From the NCBI GenBank assembly GCA_951406725.2, contig OX597830.1, forward strand, positions 14,074,001 through 14,138,000: DNA of 64,000 nt. The letters run 5' to 3'. Position numbers and translations under genes: made by a program. Positions 7,275-57,331 of the stretch are shown in pieces. This DNA is from Octopus vulgaris (Eukaryota). Numbering within the stretch: position 1 is the stretch's first letter; each line of letters opens with the position of its first letter. The notes below the pieces were generated by a model. The model worked only from the letters and a program-made list of their open reading frames with translations, had not been told where the DNA came from and ran no database searches.

Positions 7275-8359
7275 TAGAAACATCAATAAAGGGAAGAATT
7301 CGTTTGTGTAAAGTCGAGATCAACCCTTTGTTAAAACGTGTCTGCTTTAAGGAGCAGACTTATGATAAAATGATTTCTCGTCATTGGGGGCAACATTGCT
7401 CAGTTTGGCTTTCCCTTCTTTCAAGACGACATACTCTGCTTTGAGGAAGATTTGGTTGCTATATGTAGCAGTTTGACTAATCGGTTAGTCTCTCTCGAGG
7501 CCTTAATTTCATTGTGTTTGACATTTTCGTTTGTTGATTCCACCCACACAAGTAAAATATGAATAGATGTTTGCAGAATATTAGACACTTAAGTCGCCTG
7601 TTGTTAGACATTCCGACTGCCATTTTCATAACATAAAAGTAACAACTTTCAGTAATTTAGAGCGACTGGAAATAACGAAGGGTAGGGGAAATATTATTGC
7701 ATACCTTCTCGAATACATGTTGAGTTTCCGAATTGAAAAAAAACCTCTGGATTCAATTTTGTTGAAATATAAGTATGACAATATCAAACGTTGAAATAAA
7801 TTTTGAAAAATATCTGAATAGAAAAGAATAGACAACTAATAGTAGTTAGAAAAAGTAAAAATTCATTGAAGTATACAGTAGAAGAGGAAGATATCGAATA
7901 CATTTATTGGTGTAGGTGAAAGGCAGATGCAGAATTTATAATGGCAACGAGATACAAAGTCACGTGTCACTTAAAAAAGATTAACGCAGAATATTTAAAC
8001 AACTGGATTAATGCTGACTCCAATGAATTCTAATCAAAACATAAATCATTTTGTAATAAGATTGGACCGAGCCGAAATGAACTGTTATTTCACTGTAATT
8101 TTCGTCAAGATTTCTGCTGCTGCTGTAATATATCTGTTACTTAAAGAAAGCGACATAGGGAAGGTGGGCATGTCACTTTAGCTGAGTAAATTAATAAAAT
8201 GTGATATATCATCGCAAGAAGTTTGCGATAAATCAAAGTGGAGATCTACTGTAGTGTTTACAGTATCAACGATTATAAAATTTCAGCGGAATTATGGAAC
8301 TGAATTCCCAGTAAATTTTATGATTACATAAAAAGAAGTATGTATGCATAGTTTGATAT

Positions 8360-15315: not shown

Positions 15316-15516
15316 ATGTGACCGCGTGTGTACCGTTGGCGATTTTTTTCCTCTGTCTTCCCTTCTCTGGATCTTTCCTTCTCCTATGTTTCCGACGAAG
15401 AGCTCCGCTCGAAACGTTAAACCCTCCTTCTTTCCTTCCTTCCTGAGAGTCCAATATAACTATATTTGTTCCACGTCCTCGCTTTGTTGTGTCTTTTTGT
15501 GCTTTCTTGTTTGGAT

Positions 15517-15522
<6 letters not shown>
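15316..15522 (+). mobile_element. Dispersed repeat with hammerhead motif (Penelope pLTR/retrozyme-like), core-mutated copy
   Basis: Homologous to 48655-48864; core reads CCGACGA instead of CTGACGA; followed by (TA)n. Confidence 0.7.
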
Positions 15523-15584
<62 letters not shown>

Positions 15585-33287: not shown

Positions 33288-34570
33288 TTGGGTTGTCCGG
33301 AAAGTTCGTGCCGATTTATAGCAGCTTACGTTTCGACTTATTTTAGAACATGGTTGAGTCCATAAAATAAGATTTGACTACACCTCCATTTAGAACACAA
33401 TTTAAGATATCTTTTCGTGGAATAAGGTTTATGTTCCTATAACCTGTGTTAATTCTGTAAGCCTTTAAAATGGAAGATAAGAAAGTTCATTTTCAGCACT
33501 TGATGCTTTTCTTTTTCCGTAAAGGGAAAAATGCTTCACAAGCAACCAAAGAAATATGCGCAGTTTACGGTGATGTTTCTTTATCCGAAAGAACTGTACG
33601 GAAGTGGTTCGCAAGATTCCGAGCTGGAGATTGTAGCCTTATTGATAAAGAGCGATCAGGCAGACCATCCACTAAAGATGATGACCAAATCAAGTCATCA
33701 ATTGAGAATAACCTACATTGCACAACCCGAGAATTGGCAGAAAGCCTCAACCTATCAAAATCCGTTGGTCATGAGCACCTGGTAAAGCTTGGGTACACAA
33801 ATCGCTACGATGTTTGGGTACCACGTGAGTTGAGTGAGAAGAACCTTTTACATCGCATTTCCATCTGTGATTCGCTTTATAAACGGAATGAAAACGCGCC
33901 TTTTTTTAAGCAAATTGGGACAGGTGATGAGAAATGATTTATCTACCGAAATGTTCAGAAAAAGAGATACTGGAGTAAGCGAGATGAGCCACCCTTAGCC
34001 ACCCCAAAAGCGGGTCTTCACCCTAAAAATGTCTTTCTTTGTGTTTGGTGGGATTAGAAAGGAATTCTGTACTATGAGCTTCTCCCAAGTAACCAGACAA
34101 CTAATTCTGAGAAATATTGCATACAACTGGACGAGTTAAAAGCAGCAATTCAAGAGAAACGTCCAGAATTGGCCAACAGGAAGAGTGTGGTTTTCCAACA
34201 TGATAATGCAAGACCGCACATTTGTTTGGGGACCAGACAAAAATTGCTGCAGCTCGGCTGGGATGTGTGACCCCACCCTCCATATTCACCAGATACTGCT
34301 CCTTCGGATTTCCACTTATTCAGGTCTCTGCAGAATAGTCTTAATGGTAAAAATGTCAATTCCTTGGATGACGTAAAATGATACCTTGATAAATTCTTTG
34401 CCATGAAAGCACCTCAATTCTAGGAAGAGAGTATTTTCAAGTTAAAGGAAAGATGGAGACGCATTGTGCAACAAAATGGTTCATATTTGGTTGATTAAAA
34501 ATGTAATGGCAAGTATTTATTGACCTTCTTTTTCCTTTAAAAATCGGCACGAACTTTCCGGACAACCCAA
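33288..34570 (+). mobile_element. Full-length mariner transposon (1283 bp)
   Basis: Perfect 30-bp TIRs TTGGGTTGTCCGGAAAGTTCGTGCCGATTT; TA TSD on both sides. Confidence 0.97.
33470..34498 (+). pseudogene. Mariner D,D34D transposase pseudogene (mellifera-like)
   Basis: HTH, WVPREL, TGDEK, HDNARPH, YSPDTAPSDFHLF; 343 codons in one frame with stops at 33935, 34055, 34268, 34379 and 34421. Confidence 0.95.
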
Positions 34571-36526: not shown

Positions 36527-38135
36527 TGCGCAGTATGGGTATAAAATGTTTGATAAAAATATAAATCATCTCATTTACATGGATGATTTAAAGCTTTTTG
36601 CAAAAAATGACCAACAACTCAGGGGCTTACTAGCGATAGTCAAACAATTCAGTGACGACATCAGAATGCAATTCAGCCTCGATAAATGTGCAAAAGCTAC
36701 CTTTATCAAAGGAAAATGACAGAAACATCTAACGTTAACCTTGACCAGCAGAATGTCATAAAAGAACTAGACCCAGCGGAGAGCTACAAGTACCTAGGGG
36801 TAATTGAAGGGAACGGAATAAGGCATTCAGAAATGAAGGAAAGGATCAGGAGAGAATGCTATCGAAGAGTGAGAGCAATACTCAAGACAGAGCTGAATGC
36901 AAGAAACAGGATCGAAGCGATCAATGCATTAGCTATACCAGTCGTGACTTACAGTTTCAATATTGTTAACTGGTCAATCACTGAAATATGTCAGCTCGAC
37001 AGAAAAATAAGGAAACTGTTGACAATGCATAGAATGCACCACCCTAAGGTAGATACAGAACGACTCTATCTGCCAAGAAAAAAGAGGAGGCCGTGGTCTT
37101 TTACAACTGGCAATAACAATGAAGATTGCTACAATTGGCCTAGACACCTACCTGAAAAACTCTGAGGACTGGATGTTAAAACTTGTCTCAAAACATGAAA
37201 ACAAGAAAGCATCATACTCAGTCACAAAACAGGCAAAGCAATATCTAAGTGAATTCCGAATACAACCAATTTCGGAATTAGAGATAGACATACAAGAAAC
37301 AAGCACAGAAAAAGCTAAGCGCATGAAAACCCGTGCCAAAACTGCGGCCTTAGATATTCTGAATAATAAATGGCAAGAAAAACCTCTCTATGGCAAATAC
37401 CCAAAGAGAGCGAATAATGCAGATATTGACAAAGCCCTGACCCATCAATGGCTAATGGCCTCTGGCTTAAAATCTGAAACAGAGGGGTTTATCATAGCAG
37501 CTCAAGATCAATACCTACCAACAAGAAACTACCAGGCCAACATATTAAAGAACGGCAGTAGCCCAACATGTCGTGTATGCCGACAACAAAATGAAACCAT
37601 TGATCATGTTGTCTCCAAATGCAGTCTTCTAGCGCCTACAGAGTACCTCAACAGACATGATAGAGCTGCACAATATATTCACTGGGTAATTTGCAAAAAC
37701 CTGGATTTGCCCCATGAAAAAAACTGGTGGGAACACAATCCACCTCCAGTGCTTGAAAATGACAACATCTCACTCCTCTGGAACTTCACCATTCAAACTG
37801 ACAGGAAGATAGATGCAAATAGGCCAGACATCATATTGAAAGACTTCAGACAAAGAACATGCTTCCTCATTGATATGACTGTCCCAATCGATATAAACGT
37901 ATCTGTCAAGACCTACCAAAAACTGAGCAAATATAAAGATCTTGAAATAGAAATCAGCAAAATGTGGAAGCTGAAGACTAAAACAATACCTGTTGTCATA
38001 GGTGCCCTGGGAATGATAGCGAAAGGGACTGATTGCTACCTAACTCAGATACCAGGAAACCCCAAAATGGCAGAAATTCAAAAGATAGTGCTCATGGGAA
38101 CTGCTCATATCCTACGCAAAATACTCTCTATATAA
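36525..38135 (+). pseudogene. RT plus CCHC plus restriction-like endonuclease ORF remnant (two frameshifts)
   Basis: HLIYMDDLKL, YKYLG, RLYLPRK, CRVC..ETIDHVVSKC, RHD, ANRPDI, KLSKYKDL; frameshifts near 36715 and 37082. Confidence 0.92.
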
Positions 38136-39859: not shown

Positions 39860-41552
<1,693 letters not shown>

Positions 41553-46029: not shown

Positions 46030-47327
46030 ACCCCTTCTTGTCTTTGCACAGATTCTAACGCTAGAGATGTACTAAGGTGCCAGCTGTTCACTACCAGTGT
46101 AATAATGTAACACACCTTATTTTTCGAGCACCATCCGGAGTATTCGAATGGTTTCCAGTAGTGATGCTTTCTGCAAGTGCTCCACCCTTATTGCAGCCCC
46201 TATTTGTTCCATATACTTTTCAAGATTTTTACTCACTGTTCCCAGAACTCCGACAAGTATTGGTTCTACTAACACCTTATTCAGCGACCGCAACTGCTTA
46301 ACTTCCCAAGCTAACCTGTTATATCTATCGAATTTTCTTTCTTCCTTATCATATACCTTGTTGTCAGCTGGGCATGCTATATCTATGATCCAGTATTGTT
46401 TGCTTTCTTTCTCAATTAATAGCATGTCTGGCTTCATATTCTGTATCTCATGGTCGCACTGTATCACAAAATCCCATAGGAGCTTTACATTATTTTTTTT
46501 GATATGCATCAAATGATGCAAAAGAAGGCATAATTATGATGTTTTCGACATTATGTTCGTACCACTGTTTTGCTCTATCAAGTCCACATTTGTTGCAAAG
46601 TGTCCAATGGAGAATCCTTGCTATTTTGTCATGACGTCATTTATGTTCTTTCTGGACTAGTGGCATACATTGACTGGTAATATGCCATACGGTTTCACCA
46701 TTTTCTCCACAAATTCTGCACTTATCACTTTCTGTATTTGATGTAATTAGTTCTTAATGCTTGCTCTTGGGCAGCGCAGATCAGAGCTTTCGTTTCCGGT
46801 TTTAAATCACTTTTAGTCATCCCATGCCATCGTTTTTCTCTGGCTTATCTTCAACATCCCCATGATATTGTCCATGCATTCCTTTCTTTATTCACCTATT
46901 TTCAGTTTCATTGATTCTGCAGTCCTTGTACAGTGCTTTTTGTTTGCAATCTTCCATCCTACACAAGCCTGACTTTCTTGCTTCCAAGAATAGTGGCCCT
47001 GTGGAATGTTTTTATATACCAGGCTATGTTGTTTTCTTCTGCTCTAATGCTGTGTTTGCATCCGATCAGTTCGCTTCCCCTCTTTTTCTTGGTACATACA
47101 GTCTGTCTGTGTTACGTTTTGGGTTGCGTATCCCATATCTAGCCTGCAACTTCCTTGTTTTTCTATCTAAGCTGTTTAGTACATCTACTTTCCATGCGAT
47201 TAACCCTGCACCATATTAAGGAGTGAAACCGCCCAGATGTTGATAGCATCGACCTTATTCCGTCCGTTTAATTTCGACTTAAGGATCAGTCTCAGTCTGC
47301 GCAAGTACTCCACCTTAAACGTTTCTG

Positions 47328-48232: not shown

Positions 48233-48234
<2 letters not shown>

Positions 48235-48644
48235 CGCAGAAGTGGCTGTGTGGTAAATAGCTTACTAACCAACCACATGGTTCCGGGTTCAGTCCCACTG
48301 CGTGGCATCTTGGGCAAGTGTCTTCTGCTATAGCCCCGGGCGGACCAATGCCTTGTGAGTGGATTTGGTAGACGGAAACTGAAAGAAGCCTGTCGTATAT
48401 ATGTATATATATATGTGTGTGTGTATGTGTGTGTGTGTATGTCTGTGTTTGTTCCCCTAGCATTGCTTGACAACCGATGCTGATGTGTTTACGTCCCCGT
48501 CACTTAGCGGTTCGGCAAAGAGACCGATAGAATAAGTACTGGGCTTACAAGGAATAAGTTCTGGGGTCGATTTGCTCGACTAAAGGCGGTACTCCAGCAT
48601 GGCCGCAGTCAAATGACTGAAACAAGTAAAAGAATAAAAGAATA
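48233..48644 (+). mobile_element. SINE family A
   Basis: Full-length match to 143-582. Confidence 0.9.
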
Positions 48645-48654
48645 TACATTCAAA

Positions 48655-48864
48655 ATGTGACCGCGTGTGTACCGTTGGCGATTTTTTTCCTCCGTCTTCC
48701 CTTCTTTGGGTCTTTCCTTTTCCTATGTTTCTGACGAAGAGCTCCGCTCGAAACGTTAAACCCTCCTTTTTTCCTTCTTACCTGAGCGTCCAACAAGACT
48801 ATACTTGTTCCACGTCCTCACGCTGTTGTGTTTTCTCTTTGTGTTTTCATGTTTGGATTAACTA
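48655..48864 (+). mobile_element. Dispersed repeat with intact hammerhead motif (Penelope pLTR/retrozyme-like)
   Basis: Homologous to 15316-15522; followed by (TA)n. Confidence 0.72.
48727..48761 (+). ncRNA. Minimal type I hammerhead ribozyme (predicted)
   Basis: GUUU-CUGACGA-A-GAGC-UCC-GCUC-GAAA-CG-UU-AAAC: stem I GUUU/AAAC, stem II GAGC/GCUC, palindromic ACGU stem III; predicted cleavage after 48757. Confidence 0.7.
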
Positions 48865-48867
48865 ACT

Positions 48868-48936
<69 letters not shown>

Positions 48937-49517
48937 CATACATACACACATATATGTATATATATATATATAATATTAATATAATATCAATATAATAAAA
49001 ATATATATCTATATATACATATATGTGTGTATGTATATATATATATATATATATACGCAGGTATAAATGTATGCATATATACATATAAATACATATAAAA
49101 GTATATATGTTCAACACAATTACATATACATACATATACATAGATATATATATATATATGTATATATAAGCACGTACGCTTGCAGACACACACACGCATT
49201 AGTGTGCGCGCACACACACACATACACACACACGCACACACACACATGTTTCTGTATACGTGTCTCTGTTCGTTTCAATACGGCCGCATGTTTACATAAA
49301 TGCAGTAATCAGTGTGCACAGGTAAAAGACTACGATTCCCTCCAATCAATTCACAATTAAATATAGACATATACACCTCTGTGTCTGTGTGTTCTATGTT
49401 CCCGTGTACGCCTGTCTACGCGGATTGCTGTGTGTGCCTGTGCTACCTTGATGTGTAATGCTTCGGTTAATACGTCTCTTTTGTATGTGTGTCTGTGTTG
49501 AAGTATCTATAAATATT

Positions 49518-56754: not shown

Positions 56755-57331
56755 TTTTCTACTCTAGGCACAAGGCCCGAATTTTTGGGGAGTGGGGGCA
56801 GTCGATTAGATCAAAACCAATATGCAACTGGTATTTAATTTATCGACCCCGAAAGGATGAAAGGCAAAGTCGGCCTCGGCGGAATTTGAACTCAGAACGT
56901 AACGGCAGCCGAAATACCTATTTCTTTACTACCCACAAGGGGCTAAACACAGAGAGGACAAACAAGGACAGACAAACGGATTAAGTCGGTTATATCGACC
57001 CCAGTACGTAACTGGTACTTATTTATCGAGCCCGAAAGGATGAAAGGCAATGTCGACTTCGGCGGAACTTAAACTCAGAACATGAAGACGACCGAAATAC
57101 CTATTTCGTTACTACCCACAAGGGGCTAAACACAGAGAGGACAAACAAGGACAGACAAACGGATTAAGTCGATTATATCGACCCCAGTGCGTAACTGGTA
57201 CTTATTTAATCGACCTCGAACGGATGAAATGTAGAGTCGACCTCGACAGAATTTGAACTCAGAACGTAGCGCCAGACGAAATACCTCTAAGCATTTCGCC
57301 CGGCGTGCTAACGATTCTGCCAGCTCGCCGC
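56755..57331 (-). mobile_element. Head-to-tail trimer of SINE family B
   Basis: One head; junctions GAAATA|GGTATTTCGG at 57101/57102 and 56918/56919; last unit has the older tail. Confidence 0.88.

Follow-up and report, generated by a model that had tools for sequence, protein, structure and literature searches.

A non-coding repeat of about 210 bp with a hammerhead-like motif lies at 48.7 kb of the window, the 64,000-nucleotide stretch of Octopus vulgaris DNA analysed in this study. The locus raises the questions of which element the repeat comes from, how its copies came to adjoin TA microsatellites, and what its ribozyme motif does. The first question has a direct answer. The repeat is the solo pLTR end of an EN+ Penelope-like element (PLE) that carries a minimal hammerhead as described in PMC4209133.

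Repeat copies and hammerhead anatomy in the window

The alignment against the window showed that copy 1 (48655-48864) and copy 2 (15316-15522) share 188 of 210 positions (90% identity, E 1e-77), which confirmed the second copy given in the preliminary description. No third copy was found when the repeat was searched against the window, and the remaining matches were at most 26 nt long (E ≥ 0.46). Matching to long copies moved the 5′ start of copy 1 about 8 nt upstream of the position first noted, to 48647 (CATTCAAAATG). The 3′ end of copy 1 reads GGATTAAC-TAAC-TAAC and is followed by (TA)n.

A full hammerhead core had been claimed for the repeat. Copy 1 has this core (CUGACGA, 48731-48737) and shows the minimal-hammerhead pattern CUGANGA...GAAA...UH over 48731-48757, whereas the core of copy 2, at 15392, reads CCGACGA (U4C); the canonical full core is thus confined to copy 1. 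The remaining anatomy was read in copy 1 as first reported, with stem II GAGC/GCUC, stem I GUUU/AAAC, a loopless palindromic ACGU, and a GUU triplet. The stem I strands GUUU and AAAC occupy 48727-48730 and 48758-48761, and an additional A (48738) follows the core. Stem II (GAGC/UCC/GCUC) spans 48739-48749 and is followed by GAA (48750-48752), the palindromic ACGU (48753-48756), and U17 (48757). This layout places the predicted cut between 48757 and 48758. T and C were both present at 48732 in contigs of four runs that we guessed to be RNA. The features are collected in Table 1.

Table 1. Position of the repeat copies, their predicted parts, and the adjoining TA runs in the window.
Feature	Position	Strand	Basis
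Terminal pLTR segment (solo) from a Neptune/Nematis-type PLE, U4/GUU subfamily, with TAAC-reiterated end	48647..48870	+	unit also in L306
Usual 5′ edge of solo copies (TCA...ATG), putative pLTR-promoter transcription start	48647..48666	+	74/100 5′ ends
Predicted minimal type I hammerhead, cut 48757/48758	48727..48761	+	motif anatomy
3′ end GGATTAAC with two additional TAAC units, putative priming site	48855..48870	+	
(TA)n-rich microsatellite target 3′ of copy 1	48872..49168	.	
Copy 2, a solo of the U4C subfamily (CCGACGA core at 15392), TA runs on both sides	15316..15522	+	
(TA)n 3′ of copy 2	15521..15584	.	

Repeat finding across the window was dominated by simple repeats. A SINE-like repeat (48233-48640), abundant in the window, has copy 1 at its 3′ end, and a 183-bp unit is repeated in tandem 2.7 times at 56800-57286. 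A mariner-type transposase fragment lies at 33461-33937 (+) (HTH_48, E 2e-22). A 5′-truncated non-LTR retrotransposon remnant with a weak zf-RVT match lies beside (AAT)n at 36540-38135 (+), and similar remnants lie near 40300-41290 (+) and 46117-46533 (-), also beside (AAT)n runs. We take these remnants to resemble restriction-like-endonuclease LINEs.

Parent element

A PLE ORF gave no match in the window. Elsewhere, sequence upstream of the unit was shared by 2 of the 30 loci from a 25-mer search, and it led to a long CA-rich stretch. L093 has a unit with 89.7% identity to copy 1 and, approximately 2 kb upstream of it, RT and GIY-YIG frames; Pfam gave no match on these frameshifted frames. 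At L306, a GIY-YIG end and a 3′ UTR are joined to a window-type U4 unit, and at L323 two window-type units (84.5% and 88.8%), 5,368 nt apart, flank a decayed ORF. A protein search found many open frames of 880–1,060 codons among the 135 scored of 5,667 candidates. Of the 20 long loci fetched, 15 had two matching cores 5.9–6.2 kb apart around the ORF and 9 had an open frame of 1,008–1,009 codons. Intact copies are approximately 6.2 kb long, with a hammerhead unit at each end and a single ORF encoding RT, Zn-linker, and GIY-YIG. The ORF-linked parents (L093, L306, L323, and the intact long loci) bear out the earlier proposal that the repeat is a solo pLTR of a PLE.

The parent protein has 949 aa from the first Met. 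It contains KGLRF, DKG, RT motifs, YIDD, a CX4CxxC linker (CSRSRCNTC at 817), and a GIY-YIG domain with CxxC and H..H, which together give the CCHH of the endonuclease. Pfam similarity was weak, with E 0.002 for RVT_1 (8e-8 in the sister family) and E 0.015 for GIY-YIG, under the curated cut-off. A total of 842 homologues were found at E ≤ 1e-20, with named sources in molluscs and cnidarians as well as in one echinoderm and one shark. The 120 homologues listed included no named Neptune or Nematis protein, and the element was assigned to the Neptune/Nematis type by the features given in the cited sections of Craig et al. 2021 (PMC8557442). It resembles these EN+ PLEs in GIY-YIG CCHH, CX2-5CxxC, DKG, and pLTRs, as well as in microsatellite bias and in tandem (L135/L136 and L140/L141) and inverted (pieces in L092 and L139) insertions. 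It differs from them in its very long CA-rich 3′ UTR (2–2.9 kb) and in the location of its hammerhead in non-coding sequence approximately 450 nt before the ATG. Two GC-rich islands (L126:6070-6260 and 7780-7930, element orientation) were seen in the CA-rich 2.9-kb 3′ UTR of the young family.

Abundance and sister families

The repeat occurs in more than ten thousand copies genome-wide, mostly adjoining TA microsatellites. A 25-mer of the motif had 8,620 exact matches in the 2.8 Gb genome, and the reversed control had 0. Exact 28-mers were found 7,786 times for C4 and 2,928 times for U4, making C4 the commoner state; these k-mer counts are lower bounds. The best 30 loci (29 besides copy 1) were 93–97% identical and mostly flanked by microsatellites, and no upstream extension was common to them.

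The intact young family represents a sister subfamily, and its hammerhead part shares 71–87% identity with copy 1, the value varying with the aligned stretch. A 37-mer specific to the young family had 887 exact matches. A more distant sister family has approximately 67% amino-acid identity, and its 28-mer with the core CUGUNGA (A6U) had 16,703 exact matches. The A6U family has stem I CUUU/AAAG and long open ORFs (e.g., L313:7953(-), L145:1776(+), and L326-L355). Its N7 was free among 30 copies (T 11, A 8, G 6, C 5) retrieved with a pattern that fixes the other positions. A single copy at L317:1312 (- strand) has U4C and A6U together. The family adds at least 10,700 + 16,700 hammerhead-like motifs. 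The words "hammerhead" and "ribozyme" do not occur in one annotation of octopus repeats (PMC13282606, main text).

Conservation of the hammerhead

The Rfam hammerhead model, proposed as a check in the preliminary description, did not score the motif in any of four main-family copies. The region 48645-48870 with copy 1 gave no hammerhead even at E ≤ 10, and three other main-family copies gave none at the gathering score. RF00163 had six matches in the genome, none at this repeat, with 73 of about 263,000 candidates scored. The six above-cut-off places, such as C5:6546758-6546804, are more canonical hammerheads of other families. The 150 Rfam matches listed for the whole window were microsatellite noise. 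The 49-nt motif alone folded no better than shuffled sequences (z -1.6, 16 of 200 shuffles as good). The case for the hammerhead therefore comes from motif anatomy, cross-lineage conservation, and the PLE context, not from Rfam or folding energy.

Among 10 lineage representatives (L307, L317b, and old copies left out), 21 of 35 hammerhead columns and 8 of 11 core columns were invariant, against 31 of 173 flank columns. Among solo copies, non-CpG changes were 1.8% in the motif and 3.3% in the flanks (p 0.03), a weak difference with composition unmatched. The motif was thus more conserved than its flanks across lineages and only weakly so among solos. In 13 representatives, 86.7% of the stem cells were paired. 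Stem I showed one compensatory event (G-C in 7/13, C-G in 5/13), whereas stem II was nearly invariant and showed none; the covariation that had been proposed as a check in stems I and II was found in stem I only. G10.1-C11.1 was a G-C pair in 13/13 and the C-G palindrome was present in 11/13, with a helix I of 4 bp. L318 was kept in both sets of representatives as a unit only; according to the tree, its hammerhead is likely an unrelated sister-family insert adjoining a main-family ORF.

Position 4 was C in 60, T in 35, and A in 1 of the 96 sampled copies, and a U4 core with an intact Watson-Crick stem II was found in only 18 of the 91 copies spanning the motif. The young-family loci L126-L142 had C4 in 16 of 17 cases, with U4 in L127 alone, and pair 2.2-1.2 is broken in this family. 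According to the cited part of PMC3088659, U4C lowers activity considerably in vitro, yet leaves enough for a viroid, and A6C is slow. The intact families have non-canonical cores (U4C or A6U) with an otherwise conserved fold; a motif of this kind is predicted to cut itself only as a dimer. In dimer folding, the predicted active form had -7.3 kcal/mol and the alternative -22.5 kcal/mol, i.e., the alternative was 15 kcal/mol more stable. The block TCCTGAGCG (48779-48788), 25–35 nt 3′ of the cut, is kept where other flanks diverge. Base pairing between its GAGC(G) and the stem II 3′ strand could produce an alternative, inhibitory fold.

Copy ends and TA targets

The 5′ ends of 100 copies were mapped against a long real copy. 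These were the first 100 of 6,746 places listed for a pattern 3′ of the hammerhead, all on contig C1. Seventy-four ends fell within 22 nt, at -10 to +11 of the ATG at 48655, and 4 were upstream and 22 downstream. No pile-up of 5′ ends was found at the predicted cut site, where 1 of the 100 ends fell within 2 nt. Among 30 young-family copies, 24 reached far upstream, 3 ended at the homologous edge, and 3 were shorter. The distant sister family, with 30 copies inspected by eye, is a weaker replicate of the pile-up: approximately 9 start at the homologous TCA/CGCC..ATG edge and approximately 11 extend further.

The young-family homologue of the -10 to -4 edge (about 48645-48651 in the window) is TCACCATG. 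Most lineages retain the edge ATG (48655-48660), and the frame that starts there is very short: ATG TGA in window-type copies and a few codons elsewhere. In most lineages, the ATG is preceded by a TCA that resembles an initiator, and we take the sister-family edge CGCCATG to resemble a YY1 site.

A sharp edge might also appear if the solos were ordinary 5′-truncated TPRT products from the 3′ pLTR, with the edge as an RT pause or a microhomology hotspot. Many 5′ junctions join (TA)n to ATGT or (TG)n to TGAC, (TA)3 was present within 20 nt upstream in 63 of 99 copies, and truncation is the norm among PLE copies. However, only 4 of the 78 copies reaching +11 pass -10, though TA-rich points exist further upstream. 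Many ends also lie at -10 to -4 (TTCAAA), upstream of the ATGT match, and the homologous edge recurs in diverged lineages. We consider ordinary truncation quite improbable.

At the other end, (TA)4 was found within 24 nt of the 3′ end in 72 of 100 copies, in line with the preference for TA microsatellites noted at the outset. In full elements, the sequence past GGATTAAC continues as TTTATATA into the 5′ UTR, and this read-through opens with TATA-rich sequence in three lineages. The two main 3′ junction types (38 and 23 of 100, with 19 unclassified) are two registers of (TA)n pairing with the read-through TTTATATA. Reiterated TAAC occurred in 3 of 162 ends (48855-48870 of the window, L006, and L180) and suggests slippage at RT initiation.

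Origin of the solo copies

We propose that a solo copy is the last ~210 bases of the PLE, made when RT, primed at a nicked (TA)n, copies an uncleaved transcript to its very start and runs off. We give this reading a probability of approximately 0.62. The GIY-YIG endonuclease would nick the (TA)n target. The RT would prime on UAUA just past the 5′ pLTR, approximately 105 nt 3′ of the cut site, through its match to (TA)n. The RT would then run off uncleaved RNA at the transcript start and leave the 210-bp solo, and the 5′ edge would correspond to the transcription start. Internal RT initiation on uncleaved RNA (PMC11167929) and an association of the CX2-5CxxC linker with microsatellite targeting (PMC8557442) are described in the cited sections of these papers. 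The promoter of D. virilis Penelope is internal to the pLTR, and transcription begins 46 nt ahead of an intron of 75 nt (PMC2377424); the end of that intron has been placed at helix I (PMC4209133). The D. virilis start lies approximately 120 nt before the hammerhead, whereas the edge here lies 80–90 nt before it. An intron ending at helix I was also considered in the octopus unit and rejected; a pyrimidine tract is present, but there is no AG before stem I. A point against the run-off model is that ATGT/TTCAAA lies at the 5′ edge, where microhomology can join it to (TA)n or (TG)n.

The main rival is that the solos form an independent SINE-like family: an internal promoter of their own would drive transcription through to the (TA)n tail, and the PLE protein would copy the RNA in trans. 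The solo keeps the putative promoter and the (UA)n tail, and non-autonomous PLE derivatives have been described (PMC8557442; bioRxiv 10.64898/2026.07.22.740005, cited parts). Long copies made up 4/100 in the GUU (window-type) family and 24/30 in the GUC (young) family (Fisher p 1e-16), as expected if solos multiply by themselves. On the other side, the U4 and C4 solo types both have long or ORF-linked members (L306, L323, and 135 exact upstream-junction matches). The PAc protein, according to the cited part of PMC11167929, requires RNA 3′ of the initiation site, and the solos have no such RNA. SINE-like amplification is unlikely as the whole explanation, and it can be partly true together with the run-off model.

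A spread as small circular RNA from tandem arrays, as in animal non-LTR retrozymes, is very hard to reconcile with the data, and we give it hardly any weight. The unit resembles retrozymes (PMC7229834; Li et al. 2026, bioRxiv 10.64898/2026.07.22.740005, cited parts) as a short, non-coding, pLTR-related unit with a type I hammerhead, its ~210 bp fall inside their 150–450 bp range (PMC7229834), and one head-to-tail pair was found (L027). Unlike retrozymes, however, it formed no homogeneous arrays among 100 loci, its motif is minimal rather than canonical, its ends are fixed on both sides of the cut site, and the long copies join it to the ORF and UTR of an autonomous element. A second unit was nearby in 3 of the 100 loci, and it was of another subfamily, on the other strand, or separated by a TA run; the L027 pair combines two different subfamilies. 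The retrozyme-like family considered in the preliminary description thus failed on the missing tandem arrays. The self-cleaved or circular RNAs that had been thought possible from solos are also unlikely. The single minimal hammerhead of a solo copy lacks a partner, so such copies are likely inert; in addition, the copies span the cut site and most are U4C or decayed.

Full-length elements and the role of the hammerhead

The 5′ pLTR of the 14 young full elements reached from 354 to more than 2,233 nt upstream of the core, and in none of them did it end at the solo edge. A simple jump from the run-off point therefore fails to explain full elements. Over ~420 nt, pLTR substitutions averaged 0.36 within an element and 3.13 between elements; since L135/L136 and L140/L141 are adjacent tandem units, the 14 pairs are not all independent. 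Private variants were found at both ends of L127, L134, and L137, and C3U in both pLTR hammerheads of L323. This near-identity indicates that one pLTR is copied twice per generation or that the two are homogenised later. The template of pLTR copying would then extend beyond the 5′ edge. A double-cleavage circle fits the pLTR identity, and template jumps or tandem-array read-through fit as well; gene conversion between pLTRs may also contribute. The cited part of PMC2377424 offers no obvious mechanism for pLTR regeneration.

Cleavage and circles are plausible for full-length elements, which have two hammerheads approximately 6 kb apart. In the full-length RNA, the ACGU palindromes may bring the two hammerheads together as a pair that cuts slowly, possibly assisted by protein. 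The resulting unit-length RNA, circular or template-jumped, would give the long partial-tandem copies. We speculate, as a tentative and rather doubtful extension, that the hammerhead acts as a switch: uncleaved RNA would give the 210-nt run-offs that mark the promoter, and dimer-cleaved RNA, once circularised, would give the long copies, with both pLTRs drawn from a single template. The lineages would have attenuated the ribozyme (U4C, A6U) while keeping its fold, with N7 free, and the ratio of long copies to solos would follow ribozyme strength. If this were true, the genome would document the PLE replication cycle at the scale of a population.

Comparison with known systems

A hammerhead in a PLE pLTR is ordinary, and the value of this family lies in the means it offers to test two questions raised in the cited papers, the function of the PLE hammerhead and pLTR regeneration. 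One genome combines intact young elements, natural U4/C4/U6 variants, GUU/GUC triplets, and mappable ends in the tens of thousands. With the fixed core changes of the intact families and the mapped ends, the part played by the PLE hammerhead can be put to the test; for PAc, cleavage is dispensable in vitro according to the cited part of PMC11167929. Neither this PLE family nor the run-off model was found described in the literature searched, and Repbase, Dfam, or bioRxiv supplements may hold the family. The core 19–20-mers had no match in the supplement text of Craig et al. (PMC8557442). Lunse et al. (2016/2017), who treated variant PLE hammerheads, may already describe U4C or A6U.

In the PAc Poseidon of Anolis (Frangieh et al. 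2024, PMC11167929, cited part), RT starts 85–92 nt 3′ of the cut (initiation 111–118 nt into the ORF, cut at 26), compared with a proposed ~105 nt here. AT-rich targets are common to both systems, as is uncleaved RNA as the chief template in the reading proposed here. Unlike PAc, the octopus element shows TATA microhomology of the read-through point with (TA)n, its hammerhead is off the ORF start, and it belongs to another clade.

The closest likeness is to the PLE minimal hammerheads, which in pLTRs are mostly single motifs (Cervera & De la Pena 2014, PMC4209133, cited part). The short helix I, the extra nucleotide 9/10.1, G10.1-C11.1, the palindromic 15.2-16.2, and the lack of loop 3 are shared, as are the thousands of single dispersed motifs and the few flanking full PLEs. 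The octopus hammerheads differ from them in a lineage-fixed U4C (main intact family) or A6U (sister family) and in a stem II of just 4 bp. The core variant given in the cited part of PMC4209133 is a C3U-G8A covariation. Two near-identical truncated C3U copies were seen on opposite strands approximately 240 nt apart (L153/L154, C1:3973694-3973965).
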